Shown piece after piece: positions 24,664 through 30,192 of a stretch of 39,213 bases of DNA. A program made the translations under genes and the position numbers. Numbering within the stretch: the stretch's first letter is position 1; the number at the start of each line of letters is the position of its first letter. The notes beneath the pieces were generated by a model, which was not told where the DNA came from, made no database searches, and saw only the letters and a list, made by a program, of their open reading frames with translations. This stretch comes from a virus (lineage: Duplodnaviria > Heunggongvirae > Uroviricota > Caudoviricetes): the IMG/VR virus record IMGVR_UViG_2562617057_000005. The stretch is one strand, 5' to 3'.

Positions 24664-24914
24664 TGAAAGAATACCGCTATTCCGGCCCGGCCAGCGGCGT
24701 CACGCTGTCGGACGGAACCGAAATCCTGCTCTGGCCGGGGAAGACTGTTTCCCTGCCGGAGGAGCATGACTACGTGAAGGTACTGGTGGCGCTGAAGCAT
24801 CTGACGCCGGTATCTGAAGAAACTAAACCCGCCGGCACACCGGCTGTGCAGTCACCAAAGCGCAGGAACGGCGGTGACAGCGAGGTGAAAACGGAGGATG
24901 CCCATGTCAGCTAA
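24660..24914 (+). CDS. hypothetical virion protein (84 aa)
   Basis: Small ORF between head-completion genes and the sheath gene. Confidence 0.55.
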   Translation: MMKEYRYSGPASGVTLSDGTEILLWPGKTVSLPEEHDYVKVLVALKHLTPVSEETKPAGTPAVQSPKRRNGGDSEVKTEDAHVS

Positions 24915-26331
24915 CTATCTGCATGGTCCCGAAACCATTGAAGTGGAAAACGGTGCCCGCCCGGTTAAAACGGTGAAATCTGCCGTTATTGGCCTGATTG
25001 GTACCGCACCAATGGGGGATGTCAATACGCTGGTACAGTGCCTGTCTGAGAAAGACGCTGCAGCATTTGGCAGCCAGTTCAACGGCTTTACCATTCCGCA
25101 GGCGCTGGATGCGATTTATGACCATGGTGCAGGCACCGTTCTGGTCATTAACGTACTCGATCCGTCTGTGCATAAAACCGCTGTGGTCAGTGAGAATGTG
25201 TCGTTCGACAAGGCGACAGGCAGAGCCCGGCTGGCTAATCCGGTGGTCGCGCAGCTGGTACTGAAACCGGACAGCGACGGTCAGCCTTATGTTGAAGGTC
25301 AGGACTACTCGCTTGATGCACAGACCGGGGTGATTACTAACCTGGGTAAAAGCATTGCTGCAGATGCAACGGTGAAGGCCAGCTATAACTATGCTGATCC
25401 GACCAGAGTCACCCCGGCTGATATCATCGGTGCCGTTAACGCGGCGGGCAACCGTACCGGCATGAAGCTGCTTAACGACAGTTTTAACCTGTTTGGCTAC
25501 TTCGCCAAAATCCTGATTGCGCCGGTATTCTGCACCCAGAACAGCGTCTCGGTTGAGCTTATCGCCATGGCTGAGAAACTGGGAGCAGTAACCTATATTG
25601 ATGCGCCGGTTGGTACCACTTTTGCGCAGGCTCTGGCGGGACGTGGCCCGGAAGGCACCATTAATTTCAATACCAGCTCTGACCGTGTCCGCCTGTGCTA
25701 CCCGCATGTGAAGGTATATGACCCGGTGACAAACACGGAGCGTCTGGAGCCACTGAGCCAGCGTGCGGCGGGCCTGCGTGCCAGAGTCGACCTGGACAAA
25801 GGGTACTGGTGGTCATCCTCCAATCAGGAAATTCTGGGGATCACCGGCGTGGAGCGCCAGCTGTCGGCAATGATTGACGATCCGCAGAGCGAGGTGAACC
25901 TGCTTAACGAACAGGGGATCACCACGGTATTCAGCAGTTACGGCAGCGGCCTTCGTCTGTGGGGTAACCGGACGGCAGCATGGCCAACGGTCACCCATAT
26001 GCGTAACTTTGAGAACGTTCGCCGCACCGGTGATGTGATCAACGAGTCCATTCGTTACTTCAGCCAGCAGTACATCGACATGCCGATTACTCAGGCGCTG
26101 ATTGATGCACTGACGGAGTCGGTCAACGCCTACGGTCGCAAAATGACTGGTGATGGTGCGGTACTGGGCTTCCGTTGCTGGTTTGATCCGGCCCGCAATC
26201 CGGAGACGGAGCTGGCCGCCGGTCACCTGTTGCTGAGCTACAAATACACGCCGCCGCCACCGCTGGAGCGGCTGACGTATGAGACGGAGATCACCTCGGA
26301 ATACCTGTTAACCCTGAAAGGGGGCAACTGA
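24904..26331 (+). CDS. contractile tail sheath protein (P2 FI / Mu L-like)
   Basis: Start at the ATG 8 nt after GGAGG; N-terminal MSANYLHGPETIEV...SAVIGLIGTAP and C-terminal YKYTPPPPLE parallel P2 FI (YDYTPVPPLE). Confidence 0.9.
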   Translation: MSANYLHGPETIEVENGARPVKTVKSAVIGLIGTAPMGDVNTLVQCLSEKDAAAFGSQFNGFTIPQALDAIYDHGAGTVLVINVLDPSVHKTAVVSENVSFDKATGRARLANPVVAQLVLKPDSDGQPYVEGQDYSLDAQTGVITNLGKSIAADATVKASYNYADPTRVTPADIIGAVNAAGNRTGMKLLNDSFNLFGYFAKILIAPVFCTQNSVSVELIAMAEKLGAVTYIDAPVGTTFAQALAGRGPEGTINFNTSSDRVRLCYPHVKVYDPVTNTERLEPLSQRAAGLRARVDLDKGYWWSSSNQEILGITGVERQLSAMIDDPQSEVNLLNEQGITTVFSSYGSGLRLWGNRTAAWPTVTHMRNFENVRRTGDVINESIRYFSQQYIDMPITQALIDALTESVNAYGRKMTGDGAVLGFRCWFDPARNPETELAAGHLLLSYKYTPPPPLERLTYETEITSEYLLTLKGGN

Positions 26332-26852
26332 TGTCAAAGATTGAGATAAACCGAATCACGAATGCCAACATCTATCTGGATGGTACTAACCTGCTGGGAC
26401 GGGCTGAGGAAGTTAAACTCCCCGATGTCTCCATGATTATGCAGGAACACAAGGCACTGGGGATGGTGGGTAAGGTGGAACTCCCGGCTGGTTTTGACAA
26501 ACTGGAAGGCGAAATCAAATGGAACAGCTTTTACCGCGATGCGATGCTGTCTGCCGCGAACCCGTACAGGTCGCTGGCGCTGCAGTGTCGCTCAAGCGTC
26601 CAGCGCTACAGTTCGCAGGGGCTGATCGACGAAATCCCGCTGGTCACCTTCCTGACGATTATGTTCAAGAAGAACCCGCTGGGGACGTTCAAACAGCACG
26701 AGAACGCCGAGTTCTCCAGTAGCTTCACCTGCACGTATATCAGACAGGTACTGGATGGTGAAGAGCTGCTGCAACTGGACTATCTGGCCAACATCTTCCG
26801 GGTCGGTGGCGTTGACCAGCTGACTGACTACCGTATCAATATCGGGGGCTGA
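26331..26852 (+). CDS. tail tube protein (P2 FII / Mu M-like)
   Basis: 173 aa directly after the sheath gene with overlapping stop/start. Confidence 0.85.
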   Translation: MSKIEINRITNANIYLDGTNLLGRAEEVKLPDVSMIMQEHKALGMVGKVELPAGFDKLEGEIKWNSFYRDAMLSAANPYRSLALQCRSSVQRYSSQGLIDEIPLVTFLTIMFKKNPLGTFKQHENAEFSSSFTCTYIRQVLDGEELLQLDYLANIFRVGGVDQLTDYRINIGG

Positions 26853-27131
26853 CGGTGAGCGTTGAACTGACTGACAAAGGGGGGGCGCTGTGCGTCACCG
26901 GGCATGTCAAATGGTACGTGGTTTACCCTCCTTGATATTCCGGGGGGTAACCCCCGTAAAACCAATGACCCGATTGACTGCACACGTTCAAAGGCCCGCA
27001 AACTGGCCGATTTGATTGAAGCATGGGAGCCGCCCGACCACTGGTTCTCCGGCACAGGCAAAGCGGAGGGAAAGACGCTTCTCATCGCTTTCCTGCGTAA
27101 CTGCAAGGGTTTTCGCACTTGCTGACATCAC

Positions 27132-27160
27132 AGGGGCTCCGGCCCCTTCTTCTTAATCTC
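27132..27160 (+). terminator. possible hairpin terminator/attenuator between tube and chaperone genes
   Basis: Stem AGGGGC / GCCCCT with a 4-nt loop, followed by TCTTCTT. Confidence 0.3.
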
Positions 27161-27221
27161 CTTTAATATCCGTCACGCGCTTCTCCCGACATACTGCCCT
27201 GAACTTACACAGGAGCACATC

Positions 27222-27557
27222 ATGTCACAGACCTCATCCGATATTTTTACGCTGTCTTATCCCTTCACCACTGCTGCAGGCACCAGAATTGAGCTGGTTG
27301 AACTGAAACGTCTGACGGTCAAAGACCTGAAGCAAGTACGTAAAATCAGCAAAAACCCGGCTGACTGGGACGAACCGCTGATTGCCCGCAGTACTGGTCT
27401 TCTCCCGGAAGATCTCGACAATATGGACCTGGCTGATTACCTGCAGTTGCAGAAACGATTTCAGCTCGTCACGGGGATGGGTGAGAGCAACGAAGGCGCT
27501 GACGCAGGCGCAGGGGCTGCTGGCAAGGTGGTTCAGGTTTCAGCCGGGGGAGATTGA
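27222..27557 (+). CDS. tail assembly chaperone (P2 E-like), frame-0 product
   Basis: 111 aa between tube and tape-measure genes; AGGAG ribosome-binding site; ends GKVVQVSAGGD. Confidence 0.75.
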   Translation: MSQTSSDIFTLSYPFTTAAGTRIELVELKRLTVKDLKQVRKISKNPADWDEPLIARSTGLLPEDLDNMDLADYLQLQKRFQLVTGMGESNEGADAGAGAAGKVVQVSAGGD

Positions 27558-27639
27558 TGCCCTCGATACTGACGATCTGGAGATGTGGCTGGAGCAGGCT
27601 GAAGAGCAAATCAGAAGCGAGTACGGCGACAAATCATAG
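27222..27639 (+). CDS. predicted frameshift-extended tail assembly chaperone (E+E'-like); shift near the G run at about 27546-27550
   Basis: An overlapping ORF in the +1 frame has a protein-like C-terminal part (GEIDALDTDDLEMWLEQAEEQIRSEYGDKS) while its upstream part is junk-like. Exact shift site not determined. Confidence 0.5.
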
Positions 27640-27714
27640 TACAGACAGCCGCCAGCAGCGGCTGTTCTGCGTTATCCCCCCACGTCTTTTCACCTTCCCC
27701 GGAGGTTAACCACT

Positions 27715-30192
27715 ATGTCGGGACAGTTTTCAGTCGGCGTTGTTATCGGCGGGATGATTGGCAGCACATTCCGTTCTGCAATGAGCGGTACCCGCCGTGC
27801 GCTTGATTCCCTGAGCGATACCTCACGCCGCCTGCAGGAACGTCAGAACGCTTTAACCCGTGCAACAGAACGTTATGGTCAACTGGGTTCTTCCCGGATG
27901 CAGCGTCTCAACAGCGAGCTGCTGCGGGTAAGCCGCACCATGGAGCAAATTGAGCGCCAGCAGCGCCGCCTGTCAGCGGCATCAGCGACCAGTGATGCGC
28001 TGAAAGCTAACCGCATGGCGCTGTATGGTCAGGGACTTGAAGCGTATGGCATGACACAGACTGTTTATCATACGGTTTCCCCGGCCGTTCAGCAGTCCAT
28101 GTCTTTTCAGGACAAAATGATTGATATGTCGATCACCGCAAAATATGACAATAAAACGCGGGATGCACTTGCCGGACAGATAAAAGGCTGGGCACTTAAA
28201 TACAATCAGTATCAGGATGAGCTGCAGGAGGCGGTGGGTTCGCTCATCAGCGACAATATTGATAACTTGTCAGATATCGGTTTTCTGATGCCGGATATTG
28301 CCCGCGCGGCAACGGCAACACGCACGTCATCTCAGGACTGGGCAAAAGTGGCCGCTGTCTGGCAAAACTCCCTGAAAGGTGCCGCCAGAGATTTTGGTGC
28401 CGTCCAGAATATTATGGCTTATGCCGGTGATCAGGGGTCATTTGAAATTCCGGATCAGGTCAAATGGATGCAGTCCCTGGCCCCAATGATGGCGGGCGTT
28501 GCCAGTGGAAAAGAGGCTGTTGCTGAAATCGGGGCCAGTCTCCAGATAGCAAAAATCGGTGCGGGCTCCACCGACGAAGCGGCCAATAACTTTAAAAACT
28601 TTCTTACCAAAATTTTTGCCCGCGATACTCAGAAACAGTTTGCTGACCTGGGTATTGATTTGCAGGGATCTATTGCGAGTTATAAGGCTGCGGGGATCTC
28701 TCCGATTGAAGGGATGTTGAGTGTTATAGAGCGTTACCTCAATACAAAAAGCCCCGAAGCTCTGGCCGGGTTCAAATCCGCCATGAAAATAAAAAATGAT
28801 ACGGCAAGAGATGAGGCACTTCAGGCTCTGGCAAAAAACTTTGGTCTGGGCGATATGTTCGCGGATATGCAGGTCATGGCGTTTATCCGCCCGATGCTGG
28901 CCAACATGGACAGGTACCGCGAGATTCGTGCCGGTGCCCTCAGGGCTGCGGATAACGATTTGCTTGCCAGTGCTTACGATCAGCGGCTGAAATCTCCCTC
29001 TGAAGCCACTAAAGCGCTTATGGTCAGCAGTCGCGATCTGGCTATTACGCTGGGCGATCAGCTCGCCCCCTCTTTTATTTCTCTGGCACAGGAGTTGATC
29101 CCACTCATTCAGGGGGCAAAACACTGGGTGGCGACTCACCCGCAATTTGTCAGTGGGGCTTTTAAGCTCATCAGTGCGCTCCTTGCGATTAAGATAGCGA
29201 CTATTGGCCTCAAACTGGGGCTGAATCTTCTTATTTCCCCCTTTGTGAACGTCTGGAAAACTGCTGTTTTACTCCGGACCAACTGGCGTCGACTGACTAC
29301 CGCACTCGGAGAAGGTGGCAAATTACGCTGGCTTGTCACTGGATTCAGCCGACTGACCCGCGGAGGACTGAAACTCAGCAAAGTTCTGACGGGCAGCCTC
29401 GTTCGCGGTTTTATGATTGCTGCACGCGCCGTTCTCTGGATTGGCCGGGCGCTGATGATGAATCCCATCGGTCTCGTTATCACCGCCGTTGCGGCAGCAG
29501 CTTACCTTATCTACCACAACTGGGGCGCAGTCAGTAGCTGGTTTAAACAGCGCTGGGCTGACATTCAGGAAGCCTTTAACGGCGGCATCGCGGGAACTGG
29601 TAAACTGCTGGTTAACTGGTCTCCGGCGGGGCTGCTTTATAAAGCCTTTGCGGCTGCGCTGAAATATCTCGGCGTTGATCTGCCGGCGAAGTTCACCGAC
29701 TTCGGTGGTCATCTTATCGACGGGCTGATAAATGGCATCAGAAACAAATGGGAGTCGCTCAAAACCAGCGTAACCGGAATGGGTGACAGCATCAGTGACT
29801 GGTTCAGCGAAAAGCTGGGCATCCATTCGCCGAGTCGCGTGTTTATGGGCTTTGGTGACAATATCGCGCAGGGTGCCGCCATTGGCCTGCAGCGAACCAC
29901 TCCGCTTGCTGCACTGGCCGGGCAGCGCCTGGCCGCTGAAATGACACCGGATGTTCCCCGTATCCCGTCGCCGGAAATCATGGCTGCCGGATATTCAGGC
30001 CGTGGCGCAACTGCAACTGGCGGTGGAGCGTCTGGCGGTATCCAGGTCAGCTTTAATCCTCAGTTTTTCCTCAATGGTAAGGAAACCGCAGCGCCTGCCG
30101 GGCTGACTGGAGCCCTGAATATGAGCCTGCATGAGCTGGAAAAAATGCTGGAGCGTCTGCTGGCTCAGAAACAACGTAAGGAGTACCGCTGA
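27715..30192 (+). CDS. tail tape measure protein
   Basis: 825 aa, helical/repetitive, with hydrophobic segments; GGAGG upstream; position after the chaperone. Confidence 0.9.
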   Translation: MSGQFSVGVVIGGMIGSTFRSAMSGTRRALDSLSDTSRRLQERQNALTRATERYGQLGSSRMQRLNSELLRVSRTMEQIERQQRRLSAASATSDALKANRMALYGQGLEAYGMTQTVYHTVSPAVQQSMSFQDKMIDMSITAKYDNKTRDALAGQIKGWALKYNQYQDELQEAVGSLISDNIDNLSDIGFLMPDIARAATATRTSSQDWAKVAAVWQNSLKGAARDFGAVQNIMAYAGDQGSFEIPDQVKWMQSLAPMMAGVASGKEAVAEIGASLQIAKIGAGSTDEAANNFKNFLTKIFARDTQKQFADLGIDLQGSIASYKAAGISPIEGMLSVIERYLNTKSPEALAGFKSAMKIKNDTARDEALQALAKNFGLGDMFADMQVMAFIRPMLANMDRYREIRAGALRAADNDLLASAYDQRLKSPSEATKALMVSSRDLAITLGDQLAPSFISLAQELIPLIQGAKHWVATHPQFVSGAFKLISALLAIKIATIGLKLGLNLLISPFVNVWKTAVLLRTNWRRLTTALGEGGKLRWLVTGFSRLTRGGLKLSKVLTGSLVRGFMIAARAVLWIGRALMMNPIGLVITAVAAAAYLIYHNWGAVSSWFKQRWADIQEAFNGGIAGTGKLLVNWSPAGLLYKAFAAALKYLGVDLPAKFTDFGGHLIDGLINGIRNKWESLKTSVTGMGDSISDWFSEKLGIHSPSRVFMGFGDNIAQGAAIGLQRTTPLAALAGQRLAAEMTPDVPRIPSPEIMAAGYSGRGATATGGGASGGIQVSFNPQFFLNGKETAAPAGLTGALNMSLHELEKMLERLLAQKQRKEYR

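Follow-up and report, generated by a model that had tools for sequence, protein, structure and literature searches.

The tail module and its two overlapping frames

The region described here is part of a 39,213 bp window (the whole stretch of viral DNA analysed, from IMG/VR record IMGVR_UViG_2562617057_000005), and is the tail module of a BcepMu-like (Mu-type transposable) prophage with P2-like tail genes, in the order sheath, tube, chaperone, tape measure, gpU, gpX and gpD. Among phage records Escherichia phage PhiKM (Bcepmuvirus) is the closest, at 96% identity across this stretch, and a close copy is present in 641 of 5426 complete E. coli genomes. The tail sheath gene (24898–26331; plus strand, as are the other assigned genes and the frameshift elements below) matches Pfam Phage_sheath_1 (E=1.4e-29) and Phage_sheath_1C, the FII-like tail tube gene (26331–26852) matches Phage_tube (E=2.9e-53), and the tape measure protein gene (27715–30192) matches PhageMin_Tail (E=2.2e-20). 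Two overlapping open reading frames sit between the tube and tape measure genes, which is the arrangement of a chaperone frameshift locus.

The first of these (27222–27557) codes for 111 aa and ends GKVVQVSAGGD-stop, as the initial annotation had it. The identification there as a tail assembly chaperone holds up well; the gene lies between the tube and tape measure genes, and residues 9–83 match PF10109 Phage_TAC_7, the family of the E, gp41 and gp14 chaperones, with 74.3 bits against a cut-off of 25 bits (E=8e-21). There is also a match to phrog_166 ('tail protein'), and this frame-0 gene is the E-like chaperone of the P2 E / Mu gp41 family ('E, or 41 or 14'). The second open reading frame (27382–27639) ends ...GEIDALDTDDLEMWLEQAEEQIRSEYGDKS-stop, also given as ...EIDALDTDDLEMWLEQAEEQIRSEYGDKS, and the sequence bears out that it is in the +1 frame (equivalent to −2) rather than −1. 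We refer to its part downstream of the proposed shift as E' (27463–27639; 58 codons plus a stop, SSSRGWVRATKALTQAQGLLARWFRFQPGEIDALDTDDLEMWLEQAEEQIRSEYGDKS), and this includes a conserved GpE-like core (LARWFRFQPGEIDALDTDDLEMWLEQAEEQ) at 27520–27609. With the extension in the +1 frame, the overlap does not offer a canonical −1 heptamer (X_XXY_YYZ) arrangement. A G run (CCGGGGGAG) is at 27544–27552, with five G at 27546–27550, and frame 0 there reads GCC GGG GGA GAT TGA.

Several other features flank the pair. A conserved small open reading frame (26904–27125) between the tube and chaperone genes matches phrog_1239 (unknown function; E=2e-34) and is labelled as a hypothetical protein in PhiKM and KP12; the profile is matched only from position 20 of 96 onward, and the gene may therefore begin further upstream than called. 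Between the small upstream reading frame and the chaperone start is a terminator-like hairpin (AGGGGC TCCG GCCCCT, 27132–27147) followed by TCTTCTT. An 8 bp GC-rich hairpin (ACAGCCGC / GCGGCTGT) is at 27645–27665, immediately after the E' stop and ahead of the tape measure gene. Its stem is kept in KP12-type relatives while the loop differs, and there is no T run after it.

Conservation and selection in the +1 frame

We gathered 170 related loci from phage records, genomes and IMG/VR, and located E' in them with an HMM made from eight peptides; a scan of genome contigs with the protein as a single query had yielded just 2 loci. Taking the chaperone as frame 0, the E' peptide is read in the +1 frame at 166 of the 170, from Enterobacterales to Burkholderia, Ralstonia and Pseudomonas, so by this comparison the conservation signal of the +1 peptide is far above chance; the counts are of related loci, uncorrected for phylogeny, and overstate independence. 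Conservation of the +1 frame in homologues, which the initial annotation had named as a check on its proposal, is thus present. The exceptions are Pasteurella phage AFS-2018a (see below), one truncated locus without a match, and two IMG/VR contigs with 1 nt indels, which put either all of E' (L109, at 930–960) or its C-terminal half (L014, at 1001–1040, at the G run) into frame 0. In-frame 138 aa database proteins (P0001–P0011) were also considered as evidence for the site and set aside. Their junctions vary, with several at the G run, and they come mostly from raw-read assemblies; we read them as indels or errors that are silent on the ribosomal site. These proteins and the two indel contigs may be either sequencing errors or natural fused variants.

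Searches by tblastn with the +1 peptide find phages and prophages of Salmonella and Ralstonia (about 55–59% identity), Pseudomonas (49%) and Pasteurella (42%). The matches begin well upstream of the G run, and the most conserved part of the family is the segment LLARWFRFQP. E' matches phrog_8286 (E=7e-34), and its core has a weak match to PF06528 Phage_P2_GpE, over profile positions 4–33 of 37 and below the cut-off (17.1 bits versus 23 bits; E=0.004). Four of eight relatives match the same Pfam family at E≤0.01, the best at 7.5e-5. A profile of the hypothetical fusions aligns by hhalign with P2 E+E' over 123 columns with a probability of 85% (E=6e-6). The chaperone frameshift signature that was proposed from the sequence stands as regards a conserved +1 extension homologous to P2 E', but not as regards a slip site at the G run.

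The pattern of substitutions changes along the gene. Between 27222 and 27458 the pN/pS ratio is 0.25 in frame 0 and 1.41 in the +1 frame, whereas it is 1.49 and 0.34 respectively at 27492–27533, and 25 and 0.04 (over all pairs) at 27534–27554. The tail of the chaperone beyond Phe80 is thus poorly constrained in frame 0. The upstream part of the +1 frame had been described as junk-like, which is mistaken; it reads ...GWVRATKALTQAQGLLARWFRFQPGEIDAL..., and is conserved and under purifying selection from at least 27492. At 27462–27491 the two frames are similarly constrained (0.73 in frame 0, 0.52 in +1), and for this reason the selection data alone do not fix the site to a codon. On these comparisons the locus is real and conserved and belongs with the chaperone frameshift loci already known from P2 and Mu, its extension being in the +1 frame.

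The +1 reading frame is conserved as protein with no conserved start codon of its own, as in a chaperone frameshift. This bears directly on a simpler explanation, that there is no frameshift and E' is a separate small protein translated from an internal +1 start such as the GTG at 27481. That GTG comes after a GGGGA string, and both phrog_8286 and several records treat the E' reading frame as a gene in its own right (e.g. BcepMu gp42 and Komp_PAO1_1 CDS0016). However, KP12-type relatives have GCA at the position of the GTG, and in the Pseudomonas and Ralstonia relatives the +1 reading frame opens only three codons ahead of a conserved phenylalanine (Phe80 of the chaperone), with no start codon. 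Moreover, the homologous E' of P2 is made only as an E+E' fusion, and independent initiation leaves unexplained the invariance of a TTT_C motif and of the wobble base of a CGA codon described below. We regard separate initiation of E' as very unlikely.

Proposed position of the frame change

The initial annotation placed the slip site at the G run, which is located exactly as it stated (27544–27552). On GCC_GGG_GGA_GAU_UGA (27543–27557), slipping by +1 (GGG to GGG) or, as in Mu, by −2 (GGA to GGG) would yield a product ...VVQVSAG(G)EIDALD..., with the junction VVQVSAGEIDALD (+1) or VVQVSAGGEIDALD (−2). The idea is reasonable by analogy with Mu, as the run permits perfect re-pairing, adjoins the frame-0 stop, is kept in 46 of 57 close relatives, and resembles both the verified Mu −2 site CGG_GGG_CGA and the C_GGG_GGA_GAA motif of Ralstonia YO107_2, but it is not supported by the comparative data. 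Frame 0 ends upstream of the run in 30 of the 57 unique close relatives, 29 of them at the equivalent of 27534 and one at a TAG matching position 27492; KP12, Phi06_2974B and a Mixta prophage, for example, have their frame-0 TAG at the 27534 equivalent, five codons ahead of the run. The 21 nt ahead of it evolve as +1 coding sequence (the ratios of 0.04 and 25 given above), and the three differences between the window and PhiKM at 27525–27536 leave the +1 peptide (A R W F R F) unchanged, whereas each of them alters the frame-0 protein.

There is no G run at the equivalent position in Brenneria, Salmonella, Ralstonia and Pseudomonas relatives (CCG AGT GAA, Pro-Ser-Glu) or in BcepMu (CCG TCC GAG), as compared to CCG GGG GAG here, and the run can be explained as the Pro-Gly-Glu codons of E' in the lineage of the window. 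A fusion made at this point would contain the GpE-like domain only from about profile position 13 onward, so that LLARWFRFQP would be lost and the domain halved. The locus therefore does not have the Mu type of −2 site, a conserved G run with −2 re-pairing of tRNA-Gly, since 27546–27550 is downstream of the frame-0 stops in 30 of 57 relatives and is preceded by +1 coding sequence. We reject the G run as the slip site because of the frame-0 stops of the relatives and the substitution pattern, and consider a shift there highly improbable.

Stop codons in the relatives bound the shift on both sides. In addition to the stops at the 27534 equivalent, frame 0 of L035 and P0018 is closed by a TAG matching position 27492, resulting from a change of ACC to ACT that is synonymous in the +1 frame, and their chaperones end ...GMGESN-stop; P0018, a 90 aa variant, is on at least 914 contigs. 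The frame-0 stop is 10 codons past the conserved phenylalanine in Pseudomonas phage Bise, and only 6–9 codons after it in L110, L111, L112 and L116. On the upstream side, no fewer than 12 sequences, those of Ralstonia YO107_2 and Pseudomonas Komp_PAO1_1 among them, have a +1-frame stop four codons before the phenylalanine. Because of these stops the shift would be confined to an interval from about three codons before Phe80 to six codons after it, provided that the site is positionally conserved.

Two glycine quadruplets closer to Phe80 than the G run also need to be considered. A +1 shift could occur on GCA_GGG_GCU (27510–27518, GGG to GGG) or on ACG_GGG_AUG (27471–27479, GGG to GGA), with the respective junction peptides ...GADAGAGLLAR and ...QLVTGWVR. 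The first of these, GGG_G at 27513–27516, has perfect re-pairing, is just ahead of LLARWF and is found in 47 of the 57 close relatives, but the other ten have GGGC, GGGT, GGGA or no GGG, and we reject it because the widespread 90 aa variant ends frame 0 at the 27492 equivalent, upstream of it. At the second the base following GGG (27477) is variable. Salmonella, BcepMu and Pseudomonas relatives and L110–L116 lack the quadruplet site altogether, and frame 0 ends earlier in them. A shift at either quadruplet thus seems very unlikely.

A different part of the interval is strongly conserved at the nucleotide level. Among the 57 unique relatives, an entropy profile has variation at position 3 of the frame-0 codons until about 27450 and at position 1 from about 27465. 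Frame-0 position 1 is the wobble position of the +1 frame, and this switch in phase coincides with a near-invariant block, CGA TTT CAG (27456–27464), in which the third positions are invariant (TTT) or nearly so (CGA and CAG), unlike almost every other codon of the gene. TTT followed by C (27459–27462) is present in all 126 unique sequences with phenylalanine at the Phe80 column (137 were compared), and is the sole feature common to the relatives inside the shift interval. Other conserved phenylalanine columns are mixed (83 TTC and 11 TTT; 20 TTT and 29 TTC; 52 TTT and 12 TTC). The motif also holds in GC-rich hosts, where by a rough count TTT makes up about 25% of phenylalanine codons, and two insertion loci (L140 and L164) keep TTT_CAG or TTT_CGG just ahead of E'. 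The codon after TTT is most commonly CAG (65), followed by CGG (31), CGC (22), CGT (3), CAA (3) and CTG (2). The codon preceding it is CGA in 56 of 57 unique Enterobacterales sequences, with a nearly invariant wobble base, and is GTG, TCC or GCC in other clades.

Grouped at 60% identity, 13 of 15 clusters have TTT followed by C, the other two being Pasteurella phage AFS-2018a, with E' in the −1 frame, and a clade with TTG. The TTG clade comprises nine loci (L138, L141, L143, L153, L159, L160, L162, L166 and L171) that have GTG TTG CGG GAA ATG, at about locus position 917–925, where the remaining +1-type relatives all have TTT-then-C, so TTT_C is not a universal feature. In these nine loci the stretch enclosed by the stops offers no evident site for perfect +1 or −2 re-pairing. 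AFS-2018a (L010, about 1420–1435) has a canonical A_AAG_GGA heptamer that directly precedes its frame-0 stop, and this phage is the only −1 user among the relatives examined; members of a single protein family thus differ in the direction of the shift.

The invariance of TTT_C could partly reflect dual coding. A frame-0 UUU followed by a pyrimidine, where tRNA-Phe can re-pair with UUY, is present within 27456–27464, and the slip site is most likely UUU_C at 27459–27462, which precedes the G run by about 28 codons. The CGA_UUU_CAG cassette (27456–27464) is proposed as the site from the wobble invariance in the relatives, the TTT_C motif, the bounding stops and the alignment with P2.

Comparison of the relatives supplies the conservation of the +1 frame, the limits on where the shift can be and the invariance of TTT-then-C, and it is from these that we infer the frameshift fusion itself, the slip of tRNA-Phe, its efficiency and the roles of the proteins. 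The explanation that we favor, and consider probable, is that the short and long products arise through a +1 P-site slip of tRNA-Phe from UUU to UUC at CGA_UUU_CAG, giving a 138 aa E+E' fusion. Most ribosomes would stay in frame 0 and make the short 111 aa chaperone, the functional part of which would end near Phe80, and a minority would shift to +1 when tRNA-Phe is in the P site on UUU (27459–27461). The tRNA would re-pair with UUC (27460–27462), and translation would resume at AGC (27463). The anticodon of tRNA-Phe is GAA, and the re-pairing would swap a G-U wobble for a G-C pair. The predicted fusion consists of MSQTSSDIFTLSYPFTTAAGTRIELVELKRLTVKDLKQVRKISKNPADWDEPLIARSTGLLPEDLDNMDLADYLQLQKRF joined to SSSRGWVRATKALTQAQGLLARWFRFQPGEIDALDTDDLEMWLEQAEEQIRSEYGDKS, with the junction ...YLQLQKRFSSSRGW. 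If the products work as in lambda G/GT and P2 E/E+E', the N-terminal part common to both would attach to the tape measure protein and the E' part would recruit the tube subunit, with the ratio of long to short product fixed and low. The CGA preceding UUU, which is invariant in Enterobacterales, may act via the E site, although this is speculative.

The predicted fold of 27450–27570 is no better than those of shuffled sequences (z=−0.39), so there is no sign of a stimulatory RNA structure in that segment, and Rfam has no match within 27150–27750. With neither a structure nor an Rfam element, and with a common CAG rather than a rare CGN as the A-site codon, the efficiency of the shift may be low. 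Two other routes to the same frame were discarded. A −2 re-pairing at the UUU site is impossible, as the triplet 2 nt upstream is GAU, and transcriptional slippage was rejected by inference, the runs (T3 and G5) being too short.

Annotation and comparison with known systems

The E+E' event is annotated in none of the public records examined. RefSeq (PGAP) calls only the short protein, there is no joined CDS in PhiKM, KP12, phiE255, Bise or Komp_PAO1_1, and PHROGs places the E' reading frame in phrog_8286 with 'unknown function'. In 16 phage records that match the BcepMu fusion, E and E' are separate or orphan entries and no frameshifted E+E' product is listed, with the join flags inspected in a minority of these records. 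In the BcepMu record (AY539836; L013, 4603–5364) gp42, the +1 reading frame corresponding to E', is given as the analogue of lambda G, and gp43 as its frameshift extension. We see no homology for gp43, a GC-rich frame-0 reading frame, in this comparison, and the comparative data would pair gp41 (the TAC_7 protein) with gp42, not gp42 with gp43. No account of a +1 shift on UUU_C in chaperones of the BcepMu or P2 type came up in a literature search of incomplete coverage.

The chaperone frameshift is a conserved textbook feature of long-tailed phages. To our knowledge, nearly all of the characterized examples are −1 shifts, and Mu is the verified −2 case. The evidence on balance leans towards a large P2-tail/BcepMu-like clade that makes its long chaperone by a +1 shift on a bare UUU_C (UUU_CGN or UUU_CAG), encompassing phages of Enterobacterales, Burkholderia, Ralstonia and Pseudomonas and prophages in hundreds of E. 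coli genomes, with the site at the domain boundary where P2 shifts −1. If so, this would be a simple, sequence-defined bacterial +1 site conserved across classes of Proteobacteria, and an example in which the position of a shift, at a domain boundary, is conserved while its direction and mechanism change. A gene pair that is very common in E. coli and Salmonella prophages would also need re-annotation, since the records now label the first gene 'phage tail assembly protein' and leave the second reading frame unannotated or as an orphan, and the UUU_C motif could be used by gene-finders for this class of chaperone.

The closest parallel is P2 gpE/gpE+E'. The Pfam families are the same (TAC_7 plus a GpE-like E'), as is the order of sheath, tube, E, tape measure, U and D genes, and the total lengths are the same to within a few residues (138 aa for the fusion predicted here and 142 aa for that of P2). 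Record AF063097 gives the verified −1 site of P2, GGT_TTT_TTG, at Phe84-Leu85; the TAC_7 match of P2 E spans residues 7–85 (profile positions 2–78), and the GpE domain starts 18 residues after the shift. In the window the TAC_7 match spans residues 9–83 (profile positions 2–77) with Phe80 near its end, and the GpE-like match starts 17 aa after Phe80. In the hhalign alignment Phe80 is opposite P2 residue 86, the first after the P2 −1 junction. Both shifts would thus be at a phenylalanine codon at the end of the TAC_7 domain, 17–18 aa ahead of the GpE domain, and because Phe80 aligns with the P2 junction and the spacing to GpE is so similar, the comparison indicates that the position of the shift is conserved between P2 and this family while the direction is different. 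The departures from P2 are that the shift here would be +1 and not −1, that it would use a P-site slip of tRNA-Phe on UUU_C rather than the T_TTT_TTG heptamer of P2, and that the identity is only about 24%.

Mu gp41 resembles the window in a different way, in that Mu is likewise a Mu-type transposable phage with a TAC_7-related chaperone and an extension in the +1/−2 frame. A −2 frameshift in the Mu chaperone is said to have been described by Xu, Hendrix and Duda in 2004, and the GenBank record of Mu gives a verified −2 frameshift (PMID 15469818) where the sequence is CGG_GGG_CGA, close to the frame-0 stop. Mu shifts on this G-rich string, whereas the analogous G run of the window is not the conserved shift site, −2 re-pairing is impossible at CGA_UUU_C, and the Mu extension has no GpE domain match. 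Lambda gpG/gpGT occupies the same place, with the major tail gene on one side and the tape measure gene on the other, and likewise pairs a short with a long product (PMC5009743); it has no sequence similarity, and its shift is −1 at G_GGA_AAG.

The proposed site itself is best compared to UUU_Y sites elsewhere. [quoted passage not shown] The window has the same minimal motif as these and the UUU_Y sites of E. coli, with the same proposed P-site slip from UUU to UUC. The next codon is CAG here and not CGN as in the PA-X and amalgavirus sites, and the putative site is in a tail chaperone gene of a dsDNA phage. BcepMu, however, reads UCC_UUU_CGC, and many of the other relatives have UUU_CGG or UUU_CGC.
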